Shown: positions 2,821-60,229 of the stretch, in pieces
Position numbering within the stretch: the first letter of the stretch is position 1
Layout: each line of letters opens with the position of its first letter
NCBI GenBank assembly: GCA_019750255.1
Contig: JAIEOU010000009.1
Span: 5,497 to 69,496 of the forward strand
Length of the DNA: 64,000 nucleotides
Source of the DNA: Patescibacteria group bacterium
GTDB lineage: Bacteria; Patescibacteriota; Minisyncoccia; Phycocordibacterales; UBA918
Direction of reading: 5' to 3'
Translations under genes and position numbers: made by a program
The notes under the pieces: model-generated
What the model saw: the letters and a program-made list of their open reading frames with translations, nothing else
Database searches by the model: none
What the model was told of the DNA's origin: nothing

Positions 2821-4095
2821 TTAATACTCCCGCAACGACACTTGAGCGTCGAGACGGCGAATCAGGTCCAGCACCACCGACACCACAATGAGTACCGCAG
2901 TACCACCAATCGCGAGCGCTGCCACACCGGTCGCGAGTTGCATACCGATTGGAAGAACTGCGACAAGGGCGAGGAAGGTCGCACCAACCAGGGTAAGACG
3001 AGTAATGAGCGCTCCGAGATACTCCACCGTGTGTGATCCAGGGCGAATACCGGGGATGTACGCACCGTTACGCTGAAGGTTCTTTGCGATACCGTCCGGA
3101 TCAAAGGTGACAGCGGTGTAGAAGTAGGTGAAGACGAATACTAGGAAGAAGTACGTCGCACCGTACCAAATTTGATTAGCTAAGAAAGCCTGCACTGCCT
3201 CATTGGCACCTCCGACCCAGGTGAGTGACGGAAACGCCGTGAGGATGTTGAGCACCATCTGCGGAAAGAGCAGGATGGAAAGTGCAAAGATAATTGGAAT
3301 AACGCCTGCCTGGTTAAGGCGTAGTGGCAAATATGATGAGCTGCCACCGTAGGTAGCGCCACCACGACTTTGCTTAGCGTAGGTGATTGGTACGGGACGT
3401 TCTGCTTCAGTCATAAACACTACAGCGTAAATGATACCGAGAGCAACGAGCCCAAAGCCGAGATAGAGTGGCAGCTGCGAAGGGTCATAGCTGAAGATGA
3501 GCTGACTCACAGTCGACGGGAGTGTCGCGACAATACCCGAAAAGATAATGATCGAGACACCATTTCCAATACCGTACTCGGTGATCAGTTCACCAATCCA
3601 CATGAGGAGCATCGAACCAGCGACAATGAGAACAATGTTCACGATGAAGTCGAAGGTCGAAAGTCCCGTCAGTACACCCTGACTCTGGAGGAGGGTAAGG
3701 AAACCGAAACCTTGGAGGATGGCGAGCGGAAGCGTGAGTAAGCGGCTATACTGCGTAAAGCGGGCTCGGCCAGCCTCACCCTCTTCAGTATAGAGACTCT
3801 TCAACTTCGTACTCATCACCGTGAGAAGTTGCATGATAATTGAGGCCGTAATAAACGGACCAACACCAAGCATTACAATCGAAAGGTTTGAAAGTCCACC
3901 GCCAGAGAAGATATTGAGGAGCCCCAGGAATTGATTATTGTCGAAGAATTGCTGGAGCACAGTCTGATCAACTCCAGGAATTGGAATGGTTGCAAGCGCA
4001 CGGAATACCACGAGGGCAGCCAATACGAAGAGAATACGGTTACGAAGAGCTGGTTCGGTAACGATGAGTTTGAGCTTGTGTACGAATGTATTCAT
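2821..4095 (-). CDS. secY: preprotein translocase subunit SecY
   Basis: 424-aa polytopic membrane protein with typical SecY sequence, downstream of rplO in the spc operon. Confidence 0.95.
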   Translation of the reverse strand: MNTFVHKLKLIVTEPALRNRILFVLAALVVFRALATIPIPGVDQTVLQQFFDNNQFLGLLNIFSGGGLSNLSIVMLGVGPFITASIIMQLLTVMSTKLKSLYTEEGEAGRARFTQYSRLLTLPLAILQGFGFLTLLQSQGVLTGLSTFDFIVNIVLIVAGSMLLMWIGELITEYGIGNGVSIIIFSGIVATLPSTVSQLIFSYDPSQLPLYLGFGLVALGIIYAVVFMTEAERPVPITYAKQSRGGATYGGSSSYLPLRLNQAGVIPIIFALSILLFPQMVLNILTAFPSLTWVGGANEAVQAFLANQIWYGATYFFLVFVFTYFYTAVTFDPDGIAKNLQRNGAYIPGIRPGSHTVEYLGALITRLTLVGATFLALVAVLPIGMQLATGVAALAIGGTAVLIVVSVVLDLIRRLDAQVSLREY

Positions 4096-4114: not shown

Positions 4115-4564
4115 CTATTTTACACTACCACCTGCCGCTTCAATCTTGGCCTTAGCTGCCGCCGACACCTCGCACCCCTCAACCACAAAGGCTTTGGTAA
4201 GCTCGCCAGTAGCGAGAATTTTCACCTTTGGGTTCTTCTTGCGGATCTGGCTAATCACGTTCGCTGCCACGAGGGACGCTGAAGTAATCACCATACCCTT
4301 TTCAAAGGTAGCCTCGATCACACCGAGGTTTACTACCGTTGGCTTTACCTTCTCGTTGTTAACCGTATCGGCACGGTTCTTGCCGTGACCACGGAGTTTT
4401 GGATACTTCTTGATGATATCGCGCATTTCTGGACGAGTACTGTTACCAGCACGCGCAGTCTGACCCTTATGGCCACGACCCGACATCTTGCCGCGCTTAC
4501 CACCACGACCGATGCGCTTCTCTGTCTTCTGCGGGGTTGCCCGCTTAAGTTCGTGTAGCTGCAT
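4115..4564 (-). CDS. rplO: 50S ribosomal protein L15
   Basis: MQLHELKRATPQKTEKRIGRGGKRGKMSGRGHKGQ: Gly/Arg-rich L15 N-terminus in the expected spc-operon position. Confidence 0.9.
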   Translation of the reverse strand: MQLHELKRATPQKTEKRIGRGGKRGKMSGRGHKGQTARAGNSTRPEMRDIIKKYPKLRGHGKNRADTVNNEKVKPTVVNLGVIEATFEKGMVITSASLVAANVISQIRKKNPKVKILATGELTKAFVVEGCEVSAAAKAKIEAAGGSVK

Positions 4565-4568
4565 ATAA

Positions 4569-5261
4569 TTACTTCTTTAAGAGTTTAAGCGCTTCGACGG
4601 CGGCGCGAGCATTGTTGAGCTTGTTCTTTGAACGAGAGAAAATCTTAGCGGTAACGTCCTTTACACCACCAAGTTCAAGTACGGTACGAACTGACGAACC
4701 GGCCACGAGTCCACGACCCGGCGCTGGCATAATCATCACTTCACTCGAGGCATACTTGGTATGCACGTCGTGTGGAATGTGACTGTCCTTATTCATCGGA
4801 ATCTGAATCATGTGCTTTTTAGCGTCACGCATCGCCTTGTCGATAGCGAGCTGGGTGTCACCGGCCTTGCCGATACCAACACCAACCTTGCCATTCTTGT
4901 CGCCAAGCACCATCGCTACTGAGAAACTGAACCGACGACCACCAGCCATAACACGGGTTACGCGACGGATACTGATGATCTTCTGGTCAAACTCAGGACG
5001 TGCGCGTTCGGGGCGAGCGGTGCGGCGCTGACGGCGCTCTCCGCCACCAGCTCCACCACGTCGGCCACCACCGGCTCCCGCGGTGCGGTTACCTGGACGG
5101 CGATCACGGAAACCTCGTCCTCCCTCGTCCGTAGCAGGAGCGCCTACAGTAACGTCGGCTCCCGCAGCGGGTGCATCGGTAGAAGGTGTCGCTTCCGACA
5201 CTTCTGGCTCTGGTACCACTGGGGTATCAGTTATAGCTTCCTGCTGCTTATCTTCACTCAT
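4569..5261 (-). CDS. rpsE: 30S ribosomal protein S5 with long low-complexity N-terminal extension
   Basis: Core RFSFSVAMVLGDKNGKVGVGIGKA is the S5 signature. About 110 aa of Ala/Gly/Arg-rich N-terminal tail. No L30 gene between S5 and L15, which is typical of CPR. Confidence 0.9.
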   Translation of the reverse strand: MSEDKQQEAITDTPVVPEPEVSEATPSTDAPAAGADVTVGAPATDEGGRGFRDRRPGNRTAGAGGGRRGGAGGGERRQRRTARPERARPEFDQKIISIRRVTRVMAGGRRFSFSVAMVLGDKNGKVGVGIGKAGDTQLAIDKAMRDAKKHMIQIPMNKDSHIPHDVHTKYASSEVMIMPAPGRGLVAGSSVRTVLELGGVKDVTAKIFSRSKNKLNNARAAVEALKLLKK

Positions 5262-6172: not shown

Positions 6173-6565
6173 TTACCAAATGATGAAGAGCTCCTCACCA
6201 CCGACCTGCTTTTCTTTAGCTTCCTCATTGGTGAGGATGCCAAGCGGGGTCGAAAGGATGAGATGTCCTTTACCAAACTTAACTTTGTGAATATTGGCGA
6301 CCTTGGTGTAGAGGCGACGACCAGGCTTGCTGATGCGCTTTACACCATTAATACGATGCGCGCCGCCGTTGTAGACGAGGGCAATCGAGAGCGTCTTTCC
6401 GACCTTCTTTCCCTGCTCCTTTACTTCACCGACATATCCAGCAGCCGAGAGCTTTAGAGCTACTGCCTGCTTGAGCTTACTGTACGGGAGTTCAACCTGC
6501 TTCTTTCCGACCATACCAGCATTCTTAAGCTGAATGATGAGGTCGCCGATAGCGTCGCTTACCAT
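6173..6565 (-). CDS. rpsH: 30S ribosomal protein S8
   Basis: 130 aa; [16 protein letters not shown]... with an S8-type C-terminus. Confidence 0.9.
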
Positions 6566-6744
6566 GATGACTTCTTAATGCCTGGTATATGTCCTTCGTG
6601 AGCAAGCTCGCGGAAGCAGATGCGGCAGATATCAAAATCGCGCATATACCCTCGCTTACGTGCACACAACTTGCAGCGTCGTACGACGCGGCAAGCAAAC
6701 TTCGGCGTACGCTGTGAGCGTACGATGATTGATGTTCGTGCCAC
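6559..6744 (-). CDS. rpsN: 30S ribosomal protein S14, zinc-binding type Z
   Basis: 61 aa; GTG start; C..C....C..C zinc ribbon ([10 protein letters not shown]...CRICFRE). Confidence 0.85.
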
Positions 6745-6868
6745 TGTATTTAGTTTTAGGGGTGGAGCCGTATCATGGAGAATCCATGACGTGCGCCGTA
6801 ATAATTCCGCATCAGAAACGGTGTTTCTAAGCGTACGGGTGGGTACCTTTTTAAGGAGAAATAAGAAG

Positions 6869-6950
6869 CACGTAGTGCGACTATATTTTCCTTATGCAAT
6901 CGCCTAAGCAGATTCGACCTTTAAGGGGAGAATCTGGTTGCAGCGACTTG
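6869..6950 (+). repeat. structured repeat element, copy A
   Basis: acgtagtgcgacTATATTTTccttaTGCAAtcgcctaa, then hairpin GCAGATTCGACCtttaaggggaGAATCTG, then gTTGCAgcgacttg. Inner and outer stems; 5' flank shared with copy C. Confidence 0.6.
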
Positions 6951-7029
6951 TGAGAGGCAGAGACCCCGACCGCGTAGGCGCAATACTACTAGAATAAGGT
7001 TATTTGTCAAGGATAAATACAGAGGCCGT

Positions 7030-7105
7030 AGGCCGACAATATTTTCCTTGTGCAATCGCCTAACTGTTTTCGACCCCAGAAGGAGAAAACAGTTGCGGCG
7101 ACTTG
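7030..7105 (+). repeat. structured repeat element, copy B (tandem to A)
   Basis: Same architecture as copy A, but the inner stem is CTGTTTTC...GAAAACAG. Every stem position differs from A while pairing is preserved (covariation). Loop cores TTCGACC and GGAGAA are conserved. Confidence 0.6.
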
Positions 7106-7453
7106 CCTGGGATATAAAAATAAGGAGGCCACCATTGCTTTCATCCGTCCTTGCGAGCCTCAGCGAAGCAATCCAAACAATAATCCTAACCCAAAGGCCA
7201 GGCCTTTGTAGCCCGAACCTAGGAAACCCTACTACGGAGGCCAGGTCTCATAGTAGGAACACGAGGCTATAATCCGAGAAATTCTTTCCCAGCACACATA
7301 AAACCCTAGTCTGTTCAATACTTTTCAAAGCGCCAGGAGTTCTCATTGGCGTGAGACGTAAGTACGTTTATACGAAACGCCTCTAAGAGCCCTAGTCCAG
7401 GCTAGCAATGACAGATATACTTTCTATAACGTTACTATCTAAATAAAAATTCT

Positions 7454-8107
7454 ATGGGTTATAAAGTCAAATTTACTGTACTTGCTACACTACTCCTATT
7501 TGCTGTAAACATAAGCCACGCAAGTAGTCATTCAGAAAATTTCTCGTTTGAAGTTAGCAGTAAAAAGGTCATGTCTGGATCACCAGTACTGCTCCAATGG
7601 GTCGCCCCAGAAGGTTCAATCTGTAATCTTAATGGTACAACGATTGAAAATAGGTACGTTGTTCGTCAAGACTATTATTTGACTGAGAACCCTATAGTGG
7701 ATACGCGATACACCCTTACGTGTAGCAACGGCTTGATTACAAGCAAAATTGTACAGAAAGTGAACGTGGTGCCCGAAAGGAAAAAATCACCCACTGTTAC
7801 CACATCCATCACAGACACAGTGATTTCATATGGTCCAGGAGGTAGGAATAAATCTATTACCGCGAATCTCAACTGGACTTCAACGAATGTAGAATCCTGC
7901 ACACTTAACCAATACTTTAATAACTTTAGGACGGTAAATTTTCTGGAAGGGAGCTCCACACTAGACACTCAAGGTGCACTGGGTATGAGAGTAAGCAATG
8001 GTTCTTTTAGTTCACCAACTGAACGAACGTATCTCATAACTTGCCAAAATAAAAATGGAGTTTCAGCAGGTTCTGAGGTGGTATTTAACTCATCAATTGA
8101 TCTCTAA
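7454..8107 (+). CDS. secreted tandem-repeat protein (signal peptide, two ~90-aa beta-rich repeats)
   Basis: N-terminal signal peptide (LATLLLFAVNISHASS). Internal duplication L.W....C.LN...TY.LTC.N..G appears twice. Markedly AT-rich compared with the surrounding DNA. Confidence 0.6.
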   Translation: MGYKVKFTVLATLLLFAVNISHASSHSENFSFEVSSKKVMSGSPVLLQWVAPEGSICNLNGTTIENRYVVRQDYYLTENPIVDTRYTLTCSNGLITSKIVQKVNVVPERKKSPTVTTSITDTVISYGPGGRNKSITANLNWTSTNVESCTLNQYFNNFRTVNFLEGSSTLDTQGALGMRVSNGSFSSPTERTYLITCQNKNGVSAGSEVVFNSSIDL

Positions 8108-8139
8108 TTCCCTACTCCAAAGAATGGGACTTCGTAGTC

Positions 8140-8409
8140 CTACCTGTAGACATCCTTTCTGTGTTTGATTGTTAATACAATCAGTACCACAATGCCTCCC
8201 TTACCATCGTAGGTAAAAACTACTCGATAGTCACCAATTCGGTATCGGTACTTCCCCGATAACCTCCCTTGCAGAGCTTTGGCCCGAGCCAGCGGTTCAG
8301 CTTGAGAAGCATTATCAGCTATCTTAAGTACAATTCTCTTAGCAATTAAGGGACTCAGCTTTTTTAACTGCTGAAGAGCATCATCTGAGTAGATGACCGT
8401 AGCGCTCAT
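8140..8409 (-). CDS. RelE/ParE-family type II toxin
   Basis: 89 aa; YRYRIGDYRVVFTYDG....IVVLIVLTIKHRKDVY matches the RelE/ParE signature. Confidence 0.8.
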   Translation of the reverse strand: MSATVIYSDDALQQLKKLSPLIAKRIVLKIADNASQAEPLARAKALQGRLSGKYRYRIGDYRVVFTYDGKGGIVVLIVLTIKHRKDVYR

Positions 8410-8414
8410 TGAGA

Positions 8415-8663
8415 TTATGTAATACCAAGTTTTTTAAACACTTCTTCTTGGGTGTGGAAATTACCCCGAACAACATTGGCTTCAGCTTTTACCACATCAG
8501 CAACAAAGGTATCGAGGTACTCATCGTCAACAAACGCTTTAATTTCAAACAACGGCTTGTTTCGATTCATAACAATATAACGAACATCACTCTTTCGGGC
8601 ACGCTTAGCATAATCAGAAATATTCTGACGAAAATCTTTTACTCCGATAAATTTAGTATTCAT
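8415..8663 (-). CDS. Phd/YefM-family antitoxin
   Basis: 82 aa, directly upstream of and abutting the toxin gene. N-terminus MNTKFIGVKDFRQNISDYAKRAR...YIVMNRNKPLFEI is Phd/YefM-like. Confidence 0.7.
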   Translation of the reverse strand: MNTKFIGVKDFRQNISDYAKRARKSDVRYIVMNRNKPLFEIKAFVDDEYLDTFVADVVKAEANVVRGNFHTQEEVFKKLGIT

Positions 8664-8841
8664 ATATTTAAAGTGTACACTTAAGTGTACACTTTTGTCA
8701 AGTATTTATTGAACAGTAGTTTCGAACCGAATCCAGCCCCTTCTCGTGTCTACACAGACTGAGTGCACTTCACCCGCTCCTGCAGCAATTCTTTCAGGCA
8801 GTAACAATCATTGACATCATTAGTCACAGTTGCGTTAATTA

Positions 8842-10137
8842 ATGTATATGCACTTCGGTCTACGGACGTCTGAAGTTACTCCCCAGCGAGATATTCGCTC
8901 TGAGCCTGATTCACCGTCCTCACTTAAGACACTACTCTCTGCGCCTGGCCCACTCTCCATCATTACACTTGTAGAAACCTGTCTTCGAGAGGCACACCAC
9001 CAACACGCTTCCGACATTCATATCGAACCAAACGAACACGCCATCCGTGTTCGTTTTCGTATTGACGGCATGCTCTGCGACATCGTCACCCTTCCACGCA
9101 CTATACATTCGGAAATAATTTCTCGTATTAAAGTACTCTCCCATCTGCGGACCGACGAGCACCAAGCGGCACAGGACGGCCGCTTTCGCGCAACTTTTGC
9201 CACCACTGCGGTTGATATACGCGTTTCGATTGCCCCGACCCATCATGGGGAAAATGCCGTACTGAGACTACTTACTGAACACGCCACCCCGCGCACACTT
9301 AGCACACTCGGACTACATGAGAACGATCAAGCAAAAATTGAGCGGGCGGTCGCCTGCCAGAGCGGCATGATACTGGCAACCGGGCCAACCGGATCGGGAA
9401 AGACCTCAACGTTATATACCCTTCTCAAGTTACTCAATCACTCAGAAATCTCTATCGTCACAATTGAAGACCCTATTGAGTACGCAGTAGCTGGGGTTAC
9501 CCAAATGCAGATCAACCCGAGGTCTAACCTCACTTTCGCCAATGGGCTGCGTACCGTCTTGCGCCAGGACCCCAACGTTATTATGGTTGGTGAAATTCGT
9601 GATGCCGAAACCGCTAACATCGCTATTAATACGGCTCTCACCGGACACCTCCTCCTCTCCACCCTCCATACGAATGACGCTGCCACCACACTACCTCGAC
9701 TGCTCGATATGGGGGTAGATGCCTATCTGGTAGCGTCAACAATAAACATTGCCATCGGCCAACGCCTTGTGAGAAAAATCTGCCTACACTGCCGCACCAA
9801 GCACACGCCCACTGAAGCCGAGACACGCCACCTTAAATTGTCCTCACACACAACAACTGAGAAGTACGAAAACGTACCAAACAAATTTTTTCACGGCGCT
9901 GGCTGCCCTGCCTGCAACCACTCGGGCTATGCCGGGCGAATTGGCATATACGAAGTCCTCGTCGTGTCACCTACCATTCGCGAAGCAATCTTACAACGAG
10001 CTTCAGCTGCGACCATACATACCATCGCTCAAAGTGAAGGCCTTACCTCAATGTTTGAAGATGGCTTACGAAAAGCCGCGAAGGGTGACACAACGATAGC
10101 GGAAGTCTTGCGCGTGGTTGGGACACCAATTTCCTAA
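8842..10137 (+). CDS. pilB: type IV pilus/T2SS assembly ATPase, GspE/PilB family, short form lacking the N1 domain
   Basis: Walker A GPTGSGKTST, Asp box VGEIRD, His box ALTGHLLLSTLHTN and tetracysteine motif CLHC...CPAC. True start codon uncertain. Confidence 0.85.
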   Translation: MYMHFGLRTSEVTPQRDIRSEPDSPSSLKTLLSAPGPLSIITLVETCLREAHHQHASDIHIEPNEHAIRVRFRIDGMLCDIVTLPRTIHSEIISRIKVLSHLRTDEHQAAQDGRFRATFATTAVDIRVSIAPTHHGENAVLRLLTEHATPRTLSTLGLHENDQAKIERAVACQSGMILATGPTGSGKTSTLYTLLKLLNHSEISIVTIEDPIEYAVAGVTQMQINPRSNLTFANGLRTVLRQDPNVIMVGEIRDAETANIAINTALTGHLLLSTLHTNDAATTLPRLLDMGVDAYLVASTINIAIGQRLVRKICLHCRTKHTPTEAETRHLKLSSHTTTEKYENVPNKFFHGAGCPACNHSGYAGRIGIYEVLVVSPTIREAILQRASAATIHTIAQSEGLTSMFEDGLRKAAKGDTTIAEVLRVVGTPIS

Positions 10138-10145
10138 AGCCCTAC

Positions 10146-11327
10146 ATGAAATCTCTTTTCATAATGATATGGAACTTTGTCCGGCCCCATGACCAGCCTC
10201 GGCCGGCGCCAGGAAATACCCCACCGCCCGGACCACCACCCACCGTTACTTCAGCACCAAGTTCCATACTTTTTGTTCGCTTCACCACCAAAGACCGGGT
10301 ACTCTTTGCCCAGCGCTTATCTTTTCTCCTGCGAGCGAATGTAAGTTTAGTTGAAAGTCTCACGCTCATTCATAATCAAACCAAATCACAGCGTCGACAA
10401 CATCTCTACGCTACCGTCATCTCAGATATTCAAGCTGGACACACGCTTTCAAACAGCCTCCGTAAGTACCAATCGTTATTTGGCGAGTTTACCATCAACA
10501 TAATCAACGTTGGTGAGCAGGTCGGTGCACTCTCAGAAAATCTCGCCTATCTGGCCGATGCGCTCGCTAAAAAACACGCACTGGGGCGCAAAGTACGCAG
10601 CGCCCTCATTTATCCTCTATTCATTTCAGTCACCACGCTCGGGGTAACGGGATTTCTCGTGATGTATCTATTCCCAAAAATCATGCCAATTTTTGTTTCA
10701 CTTTCGATTGATCTACCACCTACCACCCGAGCTCTCCTCGCACTTAGTGAGTTTTTACGCGCACACGGTGGTGCGACAGTTGTACTCGGATTATGTATCT
10801 GTGTAACTTTTCTTGTGCTACGCACCAAGATTACCTCTTTGCGATTTGCTACCGACCACCTCATACTGACCACTCCGGTCGCCGGCCCCATTGTCCGTTT
10901 GTATAATTGTGCGAACTTTTGTCGGACGCTCGCACTTTGTCTTCACTCTGGTATCAGTCTTTCTGAAGCCCTTACCATTACCGCACAGACGACTCCTAAC
11001 CTCGTCTTCAAACGGGCATACGGGGCGTTCGCGGAGTCTGTGGCACGTGGTGAAAAAATCTCTAGGGCGATGTCGTCGTATACTTCACTCTTTCCCGAAC
11101 TGCTTCCACAACTACTGCTAATTGGAGAAACAACCGGTACTCTATCTAAAACCCTAACGTATGTCACGGAACTGTACGATACAGAGGTTGATGAAGTAAC
11201 AAAGAATCTCTCAAGCACCATTGAACCGGTTCTCCTTCTCACCATGGGAGTGTTTATTGGGTTGATTGCGGTTTCCGTAATCGCACCAATCTACGAGGTT
11301 ACTCAGCACCTTAACCACTCTTACTAA
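10146..11327 (+). CDS. pilC: type IV pilus platform protein, GspF/PilC family
   Basis: 393-aa polytopic protein with two GspF repeats (KDRVLFAQRLSFLLRANVSLVESL...). Pro-rich N-terminus, so the start is uncertain. Confidence 0.8.
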   Translation: MKSLFIMIWNFVRPHDQPRPAPGNTPPPGPPPTVTSAPSSILFVRFTTKDRVLFAQRLSFLLRANVSLVESLTLIHNQTKSQRRQHLYATVISDIQAGHTLSNSLRKYQSLFGEFTINIINVGEQVGALSENLAYLADALAKKHALGRKVRSALIYPLFISVTTLGVTGFLVMYLFPKIMPIFVSLSIDLPPTTRALLALSEFLRAHGGATVVLGLCICVTFLVLRTKITSLRFATDHLILTTPVAGPIVRLYNCANFCRTLALCLHSGISLSEALTITAQTTPNLVFKRAYGAFAESVARGEKISRAMSSYTSLFPELLPQLLLIGETTGTLSKTLTYVTELYDTEVDEVTKNLSSTIEPVLLLTMGVFIGLIAVSVIAPIYEVTQHLNHSY

Positions 11328-11341
11328 TTCCCCAAGCAATC

Positions 11342-11794
11342 ATGGCCACTACTAGCGGATTTACTCTCATTGAACTGCTCATCGTCATGAGCCTGCTTGC
11401 GGTGATTGCAGCGTTTAGTGCCCCTTTAAGCTTAACGAGTTTGTCACACTCTACCCTGCTTCAAGAGCGTGATGTGTTAGTTTCTCTGGTCCTCATGAAC
11501 GCAAGATCTGCTGCACTAGTGAATAGAGACCGCTCGGCTCAGGGTGTTTTTATAGATCAAACAAATAGACAGTACGTGCTTTTTAATGGCAGTACTTACA
11601 CGCAAGGAGCGCCGAGTAACCGCCTCATACCCTTTATTAGCCAATCGGTTGCGGTCAGTAACAGTGGTGGCGATACCATTATTTTTGCCCCTCACACCGG
11701 AACCATTATCAAGGGTGCCGGTACCATCAGCGTCGGGAGCGGTATTGCTACTCATACTGTTACCACAAACGACGTCGGGATGATTGACTGGTAA
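11342..11794 (+). CDS. type IV pilin-like protein (class III signal peptide)
   Basis: MATTSG|FTLIELLIVMSLLAVIAAF: canonical G-F-T-L-I-E prepilin cleavage and methylation motif. Confidence 0.8.
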   Translation: MATTSGFTLIELLIVMSLLAVIAAFSAPLSLTSLSHSTLLQERDVLVSLVLMNARSAALVNRDRSAQGVFIDQTNRQYVLFNGSTYTQGAPSNRLIPFISQSVAVSNSGGDTIIFAPHTGTIIKGAGTISVGSGIATHTVTTNDVGMIDW

Positions 11795-11797
11795 CGT

Positions 11798-13357
11798 ATG
11801 CATACGAACCCTACCTACAGCGAAGTTTCACCCTCGACGCACGCTGCCGGCTTTTCTACCATTGAAATACTTTTATCTTTTACCGTCGGCACACTGTTTC
11901 TCACCGCTGCCCTCATGCTGGTAGTGAGTGGACCTGGGCTAAATACCCGGTATTCACTAGACAGCAGTAACACCCTTGTGCTCGATGCGGCGCTTGATAC
12001 TCTTGGACTCTCTCTACTCACCCAAAGCCTTACCTCTACCACCGCTGCCCTACAAACTCAGTGGCACCGATCGATTTCTGGTTCAATTCGAATCGACCAA
12101 GGCTATGCAAAAAACCCACCATACATAACTGACATATCACCATGCCTTAAGGTTGTCACTAATGAAATAAGTTGGCTCCTGGGTGGTGGGCGTGTCCGTA
12201 ACAGCAGCCTCAGTGGAGTAGTGAGTAACGAACAGATTACTGGGGCTCTTGGAGGCGACTGCGATAGTGTACCGACGAGCGCAGACTGGTTTGCCCCACA
12301 GGTGCTTAGTCGGCACTCAATCACGTCCGGCACTCCGGTAGCACTCGACGTTCTAGGCGGGGCGGTCTACCTAAGTGACGCTGCCGGCATGTTACACATA
12401 ATTAACTTACAAGGTAATGCTATTAATGAGAACGGTGATTTTATTACTCCCCCGTTTGCAGCTGGTGCTACTTTGTTTGATGTTGATGTGGCAGACCACG
12501 TGGACCCCACAACCGGGGACCGTCACCGGTACGCATACACCGTACGGAACAGCACCTCAGACCAGTTGCAAGTAATTGACGTAGACAATCACACCGCACC
12601 CACGAGCACACCAGGAATGATAGTTACGTTTGGTGGCGCTAATCCTCCTCGCGGCAGCTTTCCCCAGGGATGGAGGCTCACCTACTATGACCGCATGGTC
12701 TACGCGCTCTCGCGTGAGACCGCCGGCTTTGAGTTTCATATTTTCGACGTCGGCGACCCTACTCGTCCCCGCGGGGTCGGACCCGGTTTCGAGGTAAACG
12801 GTACCGCAAACGACATCGCAGTTACTGATGTTTTTTTACCAACCACAACACAGCGAATAGCTATCTTGGGAACCGAACGTTCGGCACACGAAATTATGGT
12901 ACTGAACGTATCAAACCCACTCACACCGACGCTCATCACGAGCCTCGACCTACCCACGACGTTTGATGTGCGCTCCCTCTACCTTATTGGTAATCGTCTC
13001 TACGTCGGCCGCAATCGTACAACCGGCGGACCTGAATTGCTTGTATTTGAAATGACCTACAGCTCGACCTTACCCCTACAGTTAACTCTCACGCAACTTG
13101 GTACGGGAGTCGAAATTGGCGCCGATGTCACGAGCATCAAAGTAAGTGGGGTACAGGCATTTATTACCACCGCCAACGCAAATGACGCCTTCCAAATTTT
13201 TACTATAGAAAAGCCGACAGAAAACATAACCAGGATTGATACAGCCCCACTGCGACTCAGCGGCACTTTTCCGGCCGGGCTCGATTATTCCTCCCCATAC
13301 GTCTTTGTAGTAAGTAATGCCCTTCAGTCACTGCAGGTTATTCAGAGCTCACCATAA
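11798..13357 (+). CDS. large pilin-like protein fused to an LVIVD-repeat beta-propeller (candidate pilus tip/adhesin)
   Basis: N-terminus AAG|FSTIEILLSFTVGTLFL is a prepilin motif. C-terminal 350 aa carry repeated hydrophobic-x-(V/I)-x-(D/N)-(V/I)-(S/D/G)-(N/D)-P-x-x-P units (EIMVLNVSNPLTP, HIFDVGDPTRP, QVIDVDNHTAP, FQIFTIEKPTE), typical of LVIVD repeats. Confidence 0.6.
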   Translation: MHTNPTYSEVSPSTHAAGFSTIEILLSFTVGTLFLTAALMLVVSGPGLNTRYSLDSSNTLVLDAALDTLGLSLLTQSLTSTTAALQTQWHRSISGSIRIDQGYAKNPPYITDISPCLKVVTNEISWLLGGGRVRNSSLSGVVSNEQITGALGGDCDSVPTSADWFAPQVLSRHSITSGTPVALDVLGGAVYLSDAAGMLHIINLQGNAINENGDFITPPFAAGATLFDVDVADHVDPTTGDRHRYAYTVRNSTSDQLQVIDVDNHTAPTSTPGMIVTFGGANPPRGSFPQGWRLTYYDRMVYALSRETAGFEFHIFDVGDPTRPRGVGPGFEVNGTANDIAVTDVFLPTTTQRIAILGTERSAHEIMVLNVSNPLTPTLITSLDLPTTFDVRSLYLIGNRLYVGRNRTTGGPELLVFEMTYSSTLPLQLTLTQLGTGVEIGADVTSIKVSGVQAFITTANANDAFQIFTIEKPTENITRIDTAPLRLSGTFPAGLDYSSPYVFVVSNALQSLQVIQSSP

Positions 13358-13362
13358 TACGT

Positions 13363-13899
13363 ATGCCACTTCATCACGATCATCAACAAGATGGAGTTAC
13401 TCTCCTTGAAGCCATCATTTACGTCGCTCTCTTTAGTGCTCTCACTACCGGTGTTTTGATGAGTGTCTATCCCCTCTTTACCGGAGCCGCTCGTCATACC
13501 GAACTTATTGCAACCCATAGTGACATAGTGTTTATTTTGAAAAAAATTGAACAAACACTTAGCGACAGTATCACCACACCATCCTCCACAATTCTTGTAC
13601 CGCCTTCCGGCCAAAGCGCCGAAACACTCGCTATACAAAGCACGACTGGCAGCATATTTACTTTTACTATTGATACAGCCCCGTCTGGCTGCACACCGCC
13701 GCGTCTCTGCGCCACCCTTACCCTCAAGACCAATAGCGGCCCGGCATTATCGCTTAATAGCAGGAGGATTCACATTAGTGATTTTACGGTGACTCACACT
13801 GAGCAAGGACTCGATTGCTCGAGTGTTCGCTGTCTCGACATATCATTTGCAGCTAACGGACAAGCGGTCGGACCACTCCGTTACTATCTCCGTTTCTAG
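13363..13899 (+). CDS. minor pilin-like protein
   Basis: QQDG|VTLLEAIIYVALFSAL: prepilin N-terminus with Glu at +5. Confidence 0.65.
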   Translation: MPLHHDHQQDGVTLLEAIIYVALFSALTTGVLMSVYPLFTGAARHTELIATHSDIVFILKKIEQTLSDSITTPSSTILVPPSGQSAETLAIQSTTGSIFTFTIDTAPSGCTPPRLCATLTLKTNSGPALSLNSRRIHISDFTVTHTEQGLDCSSVRCLDISFAANGQAVGPLRYYLRF

Positions 13900-13901
13900 T
13901 T

Positions 13902-14303
13902 ATGAAAAATCATTTCGCACCCCGAGGATTCATAGCCCTTCTAACCATGATAATAATTTCATCGGTGTTGCTCGTCACTACTCTGTCTCTAGCACAATTT
14001 GGCCTTACCCATCGCTATTTCATACTTGATCTTGAACATAAGTCCGTGAGTACTCATTTAGCTGAGGCGTGTGTCCACATCGCTCGCGTCCTCATCATGA
14101 ATAGCCAGAGTGATAGCCTGACCTTTCCCCACCCCTTTCCCGTTCACCAAGAGTTCTGCACGATCCATTTAATAACCCGAGCGGGCACGACCAGCGCCGT
14201 AGAAACAGAGGGAACGCATGAAGGTATATCGACACACTACTCCGTCACCGTCGACAACAACAACGGTAGCTTTCTCTCCTGGGAGGAGATAATTAACCCC
14301 TAG
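13902..14303 (+). CDS. pilin-like hydrophobic-N-terminus protein (no Glu+5)
   Basis: APRG|FIALLTMIIISSVLLV is pilin-like but lacks the +5 Glu. Operon context only. Confidence 0.4.
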   Translation: MKNHFAPRGFIALLTMIIISSVLLVTTLSLAQFGLTHRYFILDLEHKSVSTHLAEACVHIARVLIMNSQSDSLTFPHPFPVHQEFCTIHLITRAGTTSAVETEGTHEGISTHYSVTVDNNNGSFLSWEEIINP

Positions 14304-14410
14304 CTATAAACAGAACTATTAATCCAAAAAATTTTAAGCACCCCCTACCGTATATAATTTAGATAACGGAAAGATGCTTCACGCAACTATACTTATCTAT
14401 AATTTATTGT

Positions 14411-14899
14411 ATGAAAAATCACACACAGAGGTCCACCCAAGGATTTACGTTGATTGAGATTCTTATCGTTATTGCAATCTTGGCTGTGCTGGCCGCCATC
14501 GTACTGGTCGCCATTAATCCAGCCCGCCAATTTCGTCAGGCCAATAATGCCCAACGCGTGAGTAACGTTAATGCTCTATTAAATGCCGTTAGCCAATACA
14601 CCGTCGACGAGAAGGGCGCCATTCCGTCCGAAATTGAAGCTGATGCTGACGAGATTAATGGCACGAGTGGTAGCGACCACGCTGATCTCTGCGCACTACT
14701 AGTACCAAAGTATCTCCCCGCCCTACCGGCCGACCCAAGCAAGAGTGACCAAAGTATTACCGAAGACAAGTGCGGTAGCGCATACTCAACCGGCTATGAA
14801 ATTAAAGCTGAGAACGGTCGCGTCGTCGTCTCGGCACCGCTCACCGAGGATGAGGATACCGGGGCGATAGCGAGTGACATCATTAGCGTAACGCGCTAA
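14411..14899 (+). CDS. pilA: type IVa major pilin candidate
   Basis: STQG|FTLIEILIVIAILAVLAAIVLVAI: textbook T4a pilin N-terminus; 162 aa. Last gene before the terminator. Confidence 0.8.
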   Translation: MKNHTQRSTQGFTLIEILIVIAILAVLAAIVLVAINPARQFRQANNAQRVSNVNALLNAVSQYTVDEKGAIPSEIEADADEINGTSGSDHADLCALLVPKYLPALPADPSKSDQSITEDKCGSAYSTGYEIKAENGRVVVSAPLTEDEDTGAIASDIISVTR

Positions 14900-14967
14900 T
14901 AGGACCAACCGCGTAACTCGCCCCACGGCTGAGACGCCGGTCTCTACATCCGCATCGTCAGCTAACA

Positions 14968-14998
14968 CGAAAAAACACCCATTTGGGTGTTTTTTCGT
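14968..14998. terminator. bidirectional intrinsic terminator
   Basis: aaaaaACACCCatttGGGTGTtttttt. Confidence 0.75.
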
Positions 14999-15011
14999 AA
15001 CCAGAAGACAG

Positions 15012-15323
15012 CTACACAAAAAAGGAATATAGCACCTCTGCTTTTGAAACCCGTTCAAGACACTCCTCCTTCATCTGCTTGTGCTTTTGATTAACCTGCC
15101 TATCCGTGTTGGCTGGTAGACACTCACCCACCATTTCACCCAACACATAGGTAGTGCCATCAATAATGAAACTAAACACCGCCTCATGCACCAACCCCTC
15201 TTCACGTAAAGATGCTTCAGCTTCAGTACGAAATTGTGTTGTGAGTTCGACACACCACTCTCTCCAAGCTGCCTCTTTACCTGATTTCACCCTGAATACA
15301 TTGGCCACGGTTTTACTACTCAT
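15012..15323 (-). CDS. hypothetical protein (DUF6176-like pattern, weak)
   Basis: 103-aa ORF flanked by terminators on both sides. VFRVKSGKEAAWREW...EG...E.VF is loosely DUF6176-like. Confidence 0.4.
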   Translation of the reverse strand: MSSKTVANVFRVKSGKEAAWREWCVELTTQFRTEAEASLREEGLVHEAVFSFIIDGTTYVLGEMVGECLPANTDRQVNQKHKQMKEECLERVSKAEVLYSFFV

Positions 15324-15375
15324 ATATCTTTACCACCCATCATATGTCTTACCAAATAAAACTCAATGTGCATGA

Positions 15376-15412
15376 TAACAAAACCGCCACCCTTTCGGGT
15401 GGCGGTTTGTTG
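15376..15412 (-). terminator. intrinsic terminator closing the rpsS-rplE unit
   Basis: On the minus strand: CAAACCGCCACCCgaaaGGGTGGCGGTTTTGTT. Lies downstream of rplE. Confidence 0.7.
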
Positions 15413-15482
15413 TTGCTGCTTCTTCAAGCCTGATTCAAAATTTTCAGATACCAGGAGCCAAGGATGAGCAGAAATAAGGAAC

Positions 15483-15551
15483 ACGTAGTGTGACTATATT
15501 TTGCTGAAACAAAAGCTTGGTTGTATTCGACTTAATTAAGAGAATAGAACC
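15483..15551 (+). repeat. structured repeat element, copy C (right flank of the island)
   Basis: acgtagtgtgacTATATTTTgc matches the copy A flank at 20 of 22 positions. Hairpin GGTTGTATTCGACttaattaagaGAATAGAACC has conserved TTCGAC and GAGAAT with a new covarying base stem. Confidence 0.55.
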
Positions 15552-15645
15552 GTAGCTTTTGAGCGAGGACAGGAGGCGTACATATTGTACGATAACTGTC
15601 CGAGCGAAGTATGCGACAAAGTATCTGGAGATTTTGGGCAGGCGA

Positions 15646-16182
15646 CTACGCGGCCTGGAGAGGTACTCCGATGTGCCGCAAGAAAGCCTCAGCTTCCTTC
15701 TTCCCTTTCGCAGTAGTCACAATCGTGATACCGAGTGGGAACACATCCTTGATTTCTTCTTCACCACACTCCGGGAAAATAGTGTGCTCTTTGATACCGA
15801 TTGAGTAGTTACCCATAGCATCGATAGAGGAACGCTTAAGACCCTGGAAATCGCGCGTCTGTGGGAGCGCAAGGTGAACGAGCTTATCGAGGAAGTGGAC
15901 CATACGAGCGCCGCGCAAGGTAATCTGGTAGCCGATGATATCACCCTTACGTGACTTAAACGACGCCACTGACTGCTTGGCTGGACGTGGTGCCGCCTTC
16001 TGACCAGTGATAAGGGCGAGACGATCGCGGATGAGCGCGAGCTTTGCCTTATCCTGAACGCGGCCGGTACCGACCGAGATAACCACCTTCTCTACCTTTG
16101 GTGCCTGCATCACATTTTTGTAACCAAACTCGTCTTTGAGGGACGCGTAGGCTGACTTGATGCGTGTATTAACTGATTCCAT
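15646..16182 (-). CDS. rplE: 50S ribosomal protein L5
   Basis: 178 aa; NVMQAPKVEKVVISVG and ITLRGARMVHFLDKL are L5 motifs. Confidence 0.9.
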   Translation of the reverse strand: MESVNTRIKSAYASLKDEFGYKNVMQAPKVEKVVISVGTGRVQDKAKLALIRDRLALITGQKAAPRPAKQSVASFKSRKGDIIGYQITLRGARMVHFLDKLVHLALPQTRDFQGLKRSSIDAMGNYSIGIKEHTIFPECGEEEIKDVFPLGITIVTTAKGKKEAEAFLRHIGVPLQAA

Positions 16183-19242: not shown

Positions 19243-19710
19243 TAAATGATGAAAGGAGTGTAACGACAATTACGAATTTCGCCACAAGGGCATTTCCATT
19301 TTTATGGTCGAGCAAAGCTCTTCCTAAAAATTGGTCAGTTCCGAATCTGCCCTTTCCTTAGGCAGATTCCTGGAACAACTACTCTTCCTTGTCGCGTATG
19401 CTCCAGTTAGTTTTTAATAAACCGCATAGATTGGGATTTTCTTATACATAAAACCCCGCTCGCAGTGGCGGTGAGGTGAGAACCTCTTGTAAAGAAAGGT
19501 AACGGCCTTGCTTAAAAGAGGTACCCACACGTCCGGTAGTTGTTCGGCCTACTTCCTGTGTGTTTCCTGCTCGTAGATAGCGAGCACTCGACACAGCGAC
19601 ATGAGGATTGGAACGGGGCCAATACTAATGGAAATTGGGCGAAATGTCAACGGAATTCGGATACTACTGTCAGTGAAACGTTCCCGACCCACCCGGGGTA
19701 CAATAGACCC

Positions 19711-31925: not shown

Positions 31926-32413
31926 AAAATTAAGTAAATGACGTTGATAATTACCGTACACAGCTGCTTACGAAAAAGCCGGGCTAGGCGTGCAAGCGAC
32001 GCGGCGCGAGAACAAGCGCGCGTCGACTACACACCACAGCGGTGTAAAAGAGCAGTATATATTCGCTCCTTCGCAATCCTGTAAGGACTGTGACGGTGCG
32101 GCAATAGTACCAGACGAGCGTAGATTTGCAACCTGAGAAAGCCGCCACGGTAATTAGGTGGCGGCTTTGCCTTCTTCTATCCCCGACAACGTCCCTTCTG
32201 ATGTAATTTGCACGACCAGGATAACATCTGGTCTGATTATCCCCCGCTTTTGCTGCAGCTTGAGATACTCAAAGATAATGCCCGGTTCGACCACTACGGT
32301 CTTTATGACTCCGTCCATGGCGTTTCTCCTTCCCTACTTCCAGCATACACCCGAAGGAGATGCAGAAACCCCGCCGTACCCACGACTGTAACTACCGATA
32401 GTCTCTAGTGATT

Positions 32414-32469: not shown

Positions 32470-32555
32470 AGGCTTACAAACACTAATGGCTAGATTCTCC
32501 CCTTGAAGGTCGAATCTAGCCAAGTGTTTGCCTAAATAAAATATAGTCGCCGTAA
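32470..32555 (-). repeat. structured repeat element, copy D (inverted orientation, in the fusA-tuf spacer)
   Basis: The reverse complement reads cggcgacTATATTTTatttaggCAAACACTtggcTAGATTCGACCttcaaggggaGAATCTAgccattAGTGTTTG. The inner hairpin matches copy A apart from the closing-pair swap (C-G to U-A) and one loop substitution (tttaa to ttcaa). The outer stem is recoded (CAAACACT/AGTGTTTG versus TGCAA/TTGCA). Confidence 0.6.
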
Positions 32556-32685
32556 ACGGCTCCTTATTTCTAGACATCTTCTTCCACATCCTTCACCGCC
32601 TACAGCGGCCAGCACACCTTGTGGCCACTTTGTTTCGCTTCACTCACAAAGTAGCTCACAAGATTCGTAAAAGACTTGCGTCGGC

Positions 32686-40694: not shown

Positions 40695-40981
40695 GGTGAT
40701 TTTTCGATTCAGACTAGCAATTCTCCTTTCGCAGGTCGCTGCCACTCGTTTTTTCGCTATGATGCTCAAAACGAGTGAAGCGACTGCATAAGGGAAATTT
40801 AGTCGGGCTAGAGCCCTCCTAATTTACCCTTATCTTTTTTTGGTTTCTTCTTCTCTTTCCGCATATCGGTGCCTTTGGCCATATAATGATGTTAGTTAAT
40901 TAACGTCTGATCTTAAAATTAATTGCGCATGGTGAGTTACTTATACTTTTCGGATACTCTCAGTATAGAACGGACAATGAC

Positions 40982-58993: not shown

Positions 58994-60223
58994 TTAACTC
59001 ATGCCGTTTGAGATTGAGTAAATTGGGGCAATGAGTGCAAGGGCAAAGAAACCGACACCTGCACCAATGACCACCATTAAGAGCGGCTCGATGATGGTCG
59101 ACAAGTCTTTTGTCTTTCGCTCGACCTCTGTTTCATAAAACTGCGCGAGTTCACTGAGCATCCCCGAAATTTGTCCAGTCTCTTCACCAACCAAAATCAT
59201 TTCTCCAACCAGGACCGGGTACAGTGTTGAATTAGCAACAAACACTTCTGAAAGCGGCGCTCCTGTCTCTACTTTATTTCTCGCTTCCCGCACAATTTTT
59301 TTGTAGTAGACATTCTGAACTACCTCTTCCGTAATCTCGAGCGACTGGATAACGTCCACTCCGGAACGAAGCAGTGAAGACAAGGTTCGGGCTGTGCGAG
59401 CGGCGTTCGTCTCCTTCGCCATAGTGCCAATGACCGGTATGCGCGTAACTGAAAAGGAAATAACAATTTTACCCATCTTGGTTTTAAAGAAGTACATCAA
59501 TCCCAGAAACGTCGCCACCATGCCGCCAATCACAAACAGAGTGTAGGCGGTCATCACATGCGTAAGCCAAATCAGGAATTTAGTCGTGGCCGGAAGCTCC
59601 ATTTTCCCACCCTCAAACACAGCGATGATTTGCGGCATTACGAATATCATCATGAGAACCGCAATCACAATCATGACCAGTATTACGATACTGGGATACA
59701 TCATCGCGCCCTTAATCTTTTTTTTCAGATTGTTAGCACGCTCAATTTGCATCGACAGTGTCGAGAGAGCCTCCGCTAAATTACCACTCTCCTCCCCTGC
59801 CTTCACCATCGCCACGTACAAATTGTTAAATTCTTTTGGAAACTCTTTAAGCCCTTCAAAAAATTGGTCACCTTTATTAATACGCTCAATAAGACGCTTA
59901 ATCACGAGCTTAAGGCGAGGGTTAGTGCTCTGCCGCTCAATCACCGACAAGGCTCGACTAACGGTAAGTCCGGCGGTAATCATCGAACCCAAGTTGCGAG
60001 TGATCATTACAATTTCATCATCCTTTACGCGACTTATCATCGCATTGATGCGATCCATGGTTAACCCACCTCCGAGCGAAAAACCACCTCCTTCTTTAAT
60101 TGAGCTTACCGTATGGCCGTTCTGACGAGCGATCGCGTACACAGCAAAGCGATCATTAGCGGTGACTGTCTCGGTGACAGCAACCCCTTCTCTGTCTTCG
60201 CCACTATAGATGAACGTAGCCAT
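58994..60223 (-). CDS. pilC: type IV pilus platform protein PilC/GspF family
   Basis: 409 aa with two GspF repeats. Confidence 0.85.
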   Translation of the reverse strand: MATFIYSGEDREGVAVTETVTANDRFAVYAIARQNGHTVSSIKEGGGFSLGGGLTMDRINAMISRVKDDEIVMITRNLGSMITAGLTVSRALSVIERQSTNPRLKLVIKRLIERINKGDQFFEGLKEFPKEFNNLYVAMVKAGEESGNLAEALSTLSMQIERANNLKKKIKGAMMYPSIVILVMIVIAVLMMIFVMPQIIAVFEGGKMELPATTKFLIWLTHVMTAYTLFVIGGMVATFLGLMYFFKTKMGKIVISFSVTRIPVIGTMAKETNAARTARTLSSLLRSGVDVIQSLEITEEVVQNVYYKKIVREARNKVETGAPLSEVFVANSTLYPVLVGEMILVGEETGQISGMLSELAQFYETEVERKTKDLSTIIEPLLMVVIGAGVGFFALALIAPIYSISNGMS

Positions 60224-60229
60224 ACCCTA

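Follow-up and report, generated by a model that had tools for sequence, protein, structure and literature searches.

No gene block in bacteria is more conserved than the S10-spc-alpha ribosomal-protein cluster, on which the phylogenomics of uncultured lineages is built. Conserved core genes can bracket intervals of rapidly changing content, and the concept of such chromosomal gene-turnover hotspots was reportedly set out by Oliveira, Touchon, Cury, and Rocha in 2017. Structured repeats are found between genes in families such as REP/BIME, ERIC, BOX, Correia, and RPE, and ribosomal-protein operons may carry autoregulatory leaders, for example the S8 operator of the Escherichia coli spc operon. 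Here, we analyzed 64 kb ("the window") of a 79-kb contig from a Patescibacteria group bacterium (assembly GCA_019750255.1, contig JAIEOU010000009.1, positions 5,497 to 69,496), in which the S10-spc-alpha cluster is split between rplE, encoding L5, and rpsN, encoding S14. An earlier note, made from the sequence alone, had taken the intervening DNA for an integrated or recombined accessory island bounded by a direct repeat of 20 nucleotides (the 20-mer). We favor another reading, to which we assign a probability of about 0.72: the rplE-rpsN junction would be an old, lineage-wide transcription-unit boundary that has turned into a cargo hotspot, and not a classical integrated island.

The locus resembles described hotspots in that core genes bracket an interval of genome-specific content; many hotspots lack recognizable integrases, and toxin-antitoxin (TA) pairs and orphan genes are typical cargo. 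It differs from them in lying inside the near-universal S10-spc-alpha cluster and in that a core operon, apparently relocated and not gained by horizontal transfer, makes up part of its cargo. Islands that target tRNA genes or gene 3′ ends likewise show direct repeats at both edges and accessory-looking content, and one relative (L013; handles of this kind denote the loci compared) has a duplicated rplE 3′ end. Unlike such islands, the interval contains no integrase and no single-copy attB is seen in empty sites, while its repeat is a multicopy structured element whose copies appear to have diverged under structural constraint.

The rplE-rpsN break and its putative transcription signals

The cluster lies on the minus strand of the window in the order L16...S17, L14, L24, rplE, other DNA, rpsN, rpsH, rplF, rplR, rpsE, rplO, and secY (Table 1). 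The distance between rplE and rpsN is 8,901 bp, which bears out the 8.9 kb reported earlier. That the split is particular to this genome was not borne out. When species-representative genomes were searched with the L5 protein, 31 loci from Patescibacteria (Paceibacteria/Parcubacteria, L5 54 to 82% identical) and 18 from other phyla were obtained. In 16 of these 18, tblastn matches to L5 and S14 are 47 to 194 bp apart, a spacing compatible with adjacency of the two genes, given that the matches to S14 begin within the protein. Among the Patescibacteria, the gap spans 130 to 6,984 bp (median, ~1.6 kb) in all 24 loci with both genes, and three further loci extend 3.6 to 4.4 kb past rplE without reaching rpsN. 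The break is therefore lineage-wide. In the closest species representative (L003, L5 82% identical), the gap is 492 bp and the island is absent.

Cargo in the gap differs between relatives. Its open reading frames (ORFs) are mostly unrelated among genomes and mostly without Pfam domains, with small subsets of relatives sharing an ORF, and a Pfam search of 10 cargo ORFs from relatives returned weak helix-turn-helix matches only, with no recombinase and no common families. One gap (L021) holds homologues of the ParE and Phd proteins of the window (57% and 60% amino acid [aa] identity), inverted relative to the ribosomal-protein genes. Constant core flanks around differing content are what defines a hotspot, and by this sequence comparison the spacer appears to be one. 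The notion of an integrated or recombined island holds to the extent that the content is non-ancestral, that relatives have different cargo, that L003 has the short gap, and that a 1.25-kb block stands out in composition; integration bounded by attachment (att) sites does not hold.

Signals that would separate transcription of rplE from that of rpsN recur in the relatives. By eye, at least 13 of 16 relatives have a strong hairpin with a T-run within ~100 nucleotides (nt) 3′ of rplE, and most relatives (L004 to L021) have a putative TTGACT-17-TACTNT promoter ~130 nt upstream of rpsN and, between the two, a structured leader. Across 13 genomes, 14 of the 18 predicted pairs in this leader show compensatory changes. 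The window keeps the 3′ part of the leader (6745-6850), and the leader has no match in Rfam. Like leaders of the S8-operator type, it is a conserved, covarying structure directly upstream of rpsN-rpsH; unlike the E. coli operator, it precedes rpsN rather than rplE and is without an Rfam match. We regard it as a candidate autoregulatory leader, perhaps for S8 or S14, of the distal spc genes. On the rplE side of the window, antisense hairpin 2 of repeat copy C (the repeat is described below) ends in GCUUUUGUUU, 81 nt past the rplE stop codon, and the hairpin at 15381-15408 has A/T runs on both sides by eye, which makes it terminator-like, possibly on either strand. An independent terminator and a promoter with a leader thus appear to be present at the boundary, the arrangement expected of a tolerated break.

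From these observations, we propose that rplE usually ends in an intrinsic terminator and that rpsN, with a promoter and a structured leader of its own, heads a second unit. In the window, transcription could terminate after rplE at the antisense hairpin of copy C or the 15381-15408 hairpin, and rpsN could be driven from TTGACA-16-TAGTAT (7010-6983) or from a remnant -10 element beside copy A. Because rplE and rpsN would be transcribed separately, with no need for read-through, insertions would be tolerated and would accumulate in the spacer; turnover of this cargo between species would make the spacer a hotspot. Here, the spacer would hold a relocated seven-gene pilus cassette, a small foreign module (the orphan secreted protein and ParE/Phd), and a DUF6176 gene. 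We infer that the boundary predates the cargo.

The 3′ end of rplE has further peculiarities in relatives. In L013, a duplicated rplE 3′ end (11988-12128; aa 132 to 178, 64% identical to L5 of the window) lies 1.46 kb after the intact gene, with two intervening ORFs that have no Pfam domain, and it also carries the conserved sequence that trails rplE in other relatives. This duplication has the form of a signature of an insertion that replaces the 3′ end of a gene. A conserved region of ~150 nt that begins with the last rplE codons was seen in L008 (~3590-3760), L016 (~10516-10690), L018, L012, and L013 (~12120-12260). Within it, a CGGCAGCGG-like segment farther downstream seems to be the pairing partner of the rplE 3′ end, and in L008 and L016 a UUUUCGACC-N4-GGRAGRAAA mini-hairpin resembles the apex of hairpin 2 of the repeat. 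The region may be another structured RNA.

Cargo of the interval

The pilus-like operon, RelE/Phd-type TA pair, and AT-rich secreted-protein gene described by the earlier note were mostly supported by Pfam; the exception is the secreted-protein gene (7454-8107). The Phd-like gene adjoins the ParE gene upstream of the toxin, with the ORFs 6 bp apart, and as small neighboring genes with family domains the two would make up a type II TA pair. With a PilB ATPase, a PilC platform protein, and N_methyl motifs in three ORFs, the seven-gene cassette has the features of a type IV pilus or type II secretion system (T2SS)-like assembly operon, as judged from domain matches. Pfam found no domain in its 519-aa and 133-aa ORFs, and no prepilin peptidase was found among the ORFs of the island, which is what that search covered.

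For the pilus operon, an origin as foreign DNA is not supported. The same seven genes stand in the same order on five contigs of related organisms. The closest PilB relatives are 61 to 66% identical, the middle four proteins show 27 to 48% aa identity, and the 162-aa prepilin-like protein shows 55 to 61%. In two of these relatives, the cassette neighbors clpB, an aminotransferase gene, and infB; in the others, it neighbors a sigma factor gene (one), PhoH/PIN (one), or RelB/YafQ and other genes (one). Across the five relatives, it thus occupies at least four other neighborhoods and is never within the ribosomal-protein cluster. The simplest reading of this pattern is that the lineage has passed the operon on vertically as a conserved cassette, which was relocated here rather than acquired from outside; the movement would have been into the spacer. 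One of the five (L097) shares with the window a TA pair of the RelE/ParE superfamily that is divergent from, and just upstream of, pilB (RelB/YafQ at 8307-8868 in L097; 8140-8663 in the window), in neighborhoods that are otherwise different. Separately, a second, paralogous PilB/PilC pair lies at 58997-61435 (minus strand) of the window, ~47% and 27% identical to the PilB and PilC of relatives, so the genome has two pilus/secretion ATPase systems.

Only a small portion of the interval is set apart by base composition. The 1.25-kb block at 7454-8700, with the orphan ORF and ParE/Phd, has a guanine-plus-cytosine (GC) content of 39.9%, against a minimum of 46.8% among 76 control blocks of the same size. 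This block (~7.45 to 8.7 kb) is the sole compositionally foreign part. The pilus cassette, with a GC fraction of 0.497 and a tetranucleotide r of 0.67, is at the low edge of the native range of the window.

In the distal half of the cluster, rplO directly follows rpsE (4115-5261, minus strand), with no rpmD (L30) in between, in agreement with the known absence of L30 in Patescibacteria, also called the candidate phyla radiation (CPR). Look-ups for identical proteins gave no record of S14, begun with either V or M, or of protein P0001.

Table 1. Positions of features in the 64-kb window (CM, covariance model; R1 and R2, model designations)
Feature	Position	Strand	Evidence or remarks
rpsN, 61-aa zinc-type S14, GTG start; heads distal spc half (rpsN-rpsH-rplF-rplR-rpsE-rplO-secY)	6559-6744	-	Pfam Ribosomal_S14, 1.3e-22; translation
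Conserved structured 5′ leader of rpsN, common to relatives	6745-6850	-	Alignments A4 and A5
Repeat copy A, holds left 20-mer	6856-6953	+	CM R1 104 bits, R2 84 bits; fold z = -3.7
Promoter-like TTGACA-16-TAGTAT toward rpsN, between copies A and B	6983-7010	-	Consensus scan 10/12; pattern match only
Repeat copy B, 156 nt downstream of A	7012-7108	+	CM R1 96 bits; fold z = -4.3
Orphan 217-aa ORF, signal-peptide-like N terminus, in low-GC block	7454-8107	+	No Pfam match
ParE/RelE-superfamily toxin	8140-8409	-	Pfam ParE_toxin, 2.7e-10, 41 bits, above cutoff
Phd/YefM-like antitoxin	8415-8663	-	Pfam PhdYeFM, 7.6e-5, 22.8 bits, below curated cutoff of 29.8
PilB-type assembly ATPase, gene 1 of seven-gene pilus cassette	8842-10137	+	Pfam T2SSE, 5e-121, 404 bits
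PilC-type platform protein	10146-11327	+	Pfam T2SSF, 9e-49, 165 bits
Four cassette genes: 150-aa prepilin-like, 519-aa, 178-aa prepilin-like, 133-aa	11342-14303	+	N_methyl motifs
162-aa prepilin-like protein, last cassette gene	14411-14899	+	Pfam N_methyl, 1e-8
Hairpin and T-run after last cassette gene	~14969-14996		Terminator read directly from sequence
DUF6176 gene	15012-15323	-	Pfam, 9e-13
12-bp GC-rich hairpin, T-run downstream on + strand	15381-15408		Terminator scan of + strand
Repeat copy C, holds right 20-mer	15469-15565	+	CM R1 92 bits; fold z = -5.9
rplE, closes proximal half of cluster	15646-16182	-	Pfam Ribosomal_L5 and L5_C
Repeat copy D, between fusA and tuf, then intrinsic terminator	32474-32572	-	CM R1 91 bits
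Repeat copy E, between two unrelated genes, then intrinsic terminator	40729-40828	-	CM R1 74 bits

The structured repeat family at both edges

The 20-nt direct repeat near both ends of the interval is real. The left copy, ACGTAGTGCGACTATATTTT, lies at 6870-6889 (6869 in the earlier note is one position off) and the right copy, ACGTAGTGTGACTATATTTT, at 15483-15502, both on the plus strand; they are identical at 19 of 20 positions, and 100 shuffles gave an expectation of no matches. As had been suspected, the 20-mers are tied to a structured repeat: each forms the loop and 3′ half of hairpin 1 within a copy of a two-hairpin element of ~97 nt. The lone mismatch (C/T) is one side of a compensatory change in the stem, GCAC/GTGC in copy A and ACAC/GTGT in copy C. 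Hairpin 1 is 88% identical between these copies and hairpin 2 only 54%. For comparison, hairpin 1 of copy A is 81% identical to that of D and 80% to that of B. Copy A looks mosaic, with hairpin 1 nearest to C (88%) and hairpin 2 nearest to B and D (73% and 71%). The single 20-mer that was to be looked for at the junctions of relatives was not found: none occurs within 4 mismatches in 468 kb of ~30 related loci, and there is hence no single-copy empty junction. The divergence between A and C, the compensatory mismatch, and the lack of a single-copy empty site indicate that the repeat is a family sequence and not a target duplication; the 20-mer would be alike at both edges because it is the most conserved segment of the family. 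The sequences do not support the 20-mer as an att duplication or as the boundary of an island.

Copies A to D came from repeat finding, and a covariance model built on these four found copy E; an improved model, run with filters off, recovered five full copies and no more in the 64 kb. In hairpin 1, AGAAAUAAG pairs with CUAUAUUUU to form an A/U-rich lower stem, which is surmounted by a 5′-GA/5′-GA internal loop, a stem of 3 to 4 bp, and a 3-nt loop. Hairpin 2 has a long stem that ends in UUCGACC-N5-GGGAGAA, in which C-G pairs close a second 5′-GA/5′-GA internal loop. Nearly invariant positions are GAcUAUaUUuU, CUU, AG, UUCGACC, and GGGAG. In all four copies tested, the strand given in Table 1 folds 1 to 11 kcal/mol better than its antisense. 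The repeat occurs in both orientations relative to neighboring genes. A stretch of ~450 nt without a convincing ORF (31962-32410, minus strand), unusually long given the compactness of the genome, separates the terminator after copy D from the likely tuf start.

The family extends well beyond the window. Public metagenome contigs scanned with a pattern from the conserved parts of the repeat yielded 34 loci, in which the covariance model identified 50 copies; there are therefore at least 50 copies in public contigs, and the occurrence of the 20-mer at many unrelated loci, which the earlier note had named as evidence against an island, is seen for the core of the repeat. In L084 (6964-7333, reaching the end of the fetched stretch) and L088 (12453-12761, reaching the contig end), at least three to four near-identical units follow one another head to tail with a period of ~94 to 99 nt. 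Among 43 distinct sequences, in an alignment that was fitted to the covariance model, 90.6% of cells are standard pairs and 29 of 33 pairs show double changes. None of 500 shuffles attained the observed pairing values, and slid partners gave 34 to 48% paired. Rfam 15 returned no gathering-score match in the window or in nine related loci, and in E-value mode the repeat elements gave only subthreshold matches at chance level. A scan of viral contigs for the repeat pattern gave no matches, and there was no sign of a phage origin.

Copies of the repeat are flanked by housekeeping genes: ftsZ, groES/groEL, secDF, rpsA/pth, smc/rnr, rpsG, dnaX, ftsK, and tyrS. About 12 copies begin at the stop codon of the upstream gene on the same strand. 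Orthologously placed copies, such as those after ftsZ in L057 and L067, differ by compensatory changes, which suggests that the repeats are long-lived and selected rather than fresh insertions. At the convergent rpsA/pth site, the repeat is oriented oppositely in L061, L074, and L086 and in L062; it abuts the pth stop codon in L086 and the rpsA stop codon in L062, the pth side of L061 and L074 being left unresolved by crude ORF calls. In the window, a lysine-rich ORF of 24 codons, MAKGTDMRKEKKKPKKDKGKLGGL (40808-40882, minus strand), ends within hairpin 1 of copy E, probably incidentally, though it echoes the habit of the repeat of lying at stop codons. ORFs resembling LAGLIDADG-type homing endonucleases, with the motif recognized by eye, lie near repeats in L059 (3918-4571) and L076 (2124-2600).

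With many intergenic copies and a common hairpin fold, the element can be classed, on sequence grounds, among dispersed structured intergenic repeats of the REP/ERIC/BOX kind. Like REP/BIME, ERIC, BOX, Correia, and RPE, it is ~100 nt long, present in many copies per genome, intergenic, and often just 3′ of genes, and it forms hairpins and occasional tandem arrays that are possible recombination substrates or transcript elements. Unlike REP/BIME-type families, it is kept at orthologous positions across species with compensatory changes, and it is asymmetric, with strongly conserved loops (GACUAUAUUUU, UUCGACC, and GGGAGAA) and GA/GA internal loops in both hairpins. Nothing in the loci read stood out as a terminal inverted repeat, a target duplication, or a RAYT-type gene, and no systematic whole-genome search was made. 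The repeat resembles a functional RNA more than a recently spreading miniature inverted-repeat transposable element, and it is most likely an RNA cis-element whose structure is under selection. A role at the RNA level would follow from the covariation.

Several other identities were considered for the repeat and set aside. TATATT as a sigma-70 -10 box has no acceptable -35 element at 16 to 18 nt by eye, and hairpin 1 covaries and is probably transcribed. A small ORF within the repeat (AAGGAG...TTG/ATG) is not conserved in length or frame, and many copies have AGG or UGG in place of the AUG. In a comparison with dif/Xer sites, the right "arm" is a covarying stem that varies among copies. TIGR arrays and type III antitoxin arrays do not fit a mostly solitary unit of 97 to 99 nt whose variable parts are base-paired. 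A weak match of model R2 at 19294-19332 was not a repeat copy on inspection. A literature search for structured repeats in CPR/Patescibacteria or for a split of rplE and rpsN found nothing relevant.

Alternative origins and implications

Some points weigh against the hotspot reading. The repeats lie precisely at the two edges and point the same way, a placement that a passive spacer does not predict, and the hairpin 1 stems of A and C are more similar than those of any other pair. The low-edge composition of the pilus cassette might also fit its transfer from a Paceibacteria relative. A recombinase gene may lie elsewhere in the genome, of which 64 kb of a 79-kb contig was analyzed here. Finally, the promoters and terminators on which the separation of rplE and rpsN depends are sequence-pattern matches.

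The first of these points would be accommodated if recombination between dispersed repeats had moved the pilus cassette, with or without its neighbors, into a preexisting copy of the repeat in the spacer, either by homologous recombination on the hairpin 1 core or through a protein that recognizes this core, leaving direct copies at both edges. We regard this, the main rival, as possible and clearly less probable than the passive accumulation of cargo. Besides the same-orientation copies at both junctions, the mosaic look of copy A, copies or variants of the repeat in the same spacer of L022, L013, and L017, and the lack of a fixed home for the cassette among relatives all agree with it. On the other hand, no repeat lies beside the cassette in any of the five relatives, most relatives with cargo in the gap carry no repeat, and the common core is only ~33 nt and family-wide, such that similarity is expected without exchange.

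A more specific version, which we hold to be improbable, makes the repeat a portable recombination or docking site that would be recognized by a protein, with exchange at the near-invariant GACUAUAUUUU hairpin junction. Such exchange would explain why hairpin 1 of copy A is C-like and its hairpin 2 B/D-like, and why copies bracket cargo in direct orientation. The analogy is with integron attC sites, whose fold is conserved above their sequence and which flank cassettes in direct orientation. Unlike at integrons, an integron integrase, promoterless cassettes in an array, and an R′/R″ core (GTTRRRY) are all absent here, and most copies of the repeat flank housekeeping genes rather than cassettes. 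If the docking-site reading were true, some enzyme would operate the rplE-rpsN spacer of Paceibacteria as a cassette-acceptor locus. A weaker claim is likelier than a docking site: the repeat would be a functional RNA cis-element of a new class, placed at housekeeping-gene 3′ ends.

Site-specific integration of a mobile element between rplE and rpsN, with duplication of a 20-nt att core, we consider very unlikely. It draws on the 20-mers near both ends in direct orientation, on the TA pair and the low-GC block, and on the absence of the interval from L003. Against it stand the membership of the 20-mer in a structured family (50 copies in metagenome loci besides the five of the window), flanks of the copies diverged to 54% identity with a mismatch that is half of a compensatory pair, the lack of a single copy at any related junction, and cargo that is mostly a native, vertically conserved operon. 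In addition, Pfam found no recombinase domain among the 11 ORFs of the island; the reported lack of an integrase or transposase stands for these ORFs, the set that the search covered.

An ancestral pilus operon between rplE and rpsN, lost or moved in the other genomes, has even less in its favor and seems scarcely credible. The ParE/Phd homologues in the L021 gap could mean that part of the cargo is old, but this pair is inverted relative to the ribosomal-protein genes, pil genes are missing from the gap in all of ~27 related loci, and the five closest PilB-bearing contigs hold the cassette elsewhere. A chimera of two unrelated contigs joined at repeat copies, where assemblers can misjoin, is next to negligible: both junctions are recovered in independent Logan assemblies from at least five samples that run into unique sequence (L24-L5-C-DUF6176-pilins in L001; L18-L6-S8-A-B-orphan-ParE-Phd-PilB in L090), and the arrangement is therefore not a misassembly.

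We thus return to an old transcription-unit boundary within the spc genes that has become a cargo hotspot. The repeat and the rpsN leader are more novel than the hotspot itself. To our knowledge, almost no noncoding RNA biology is known in Patescibacteria, and the two elements offer testable RNA elements for a phylum. A stable rplE-rpsN break with up to 9 kb of cargo bears on marker-gene binning and on assumptions of synteny, and it suggests that the distal spc genes of the Paceibacteria group are regulated differently.

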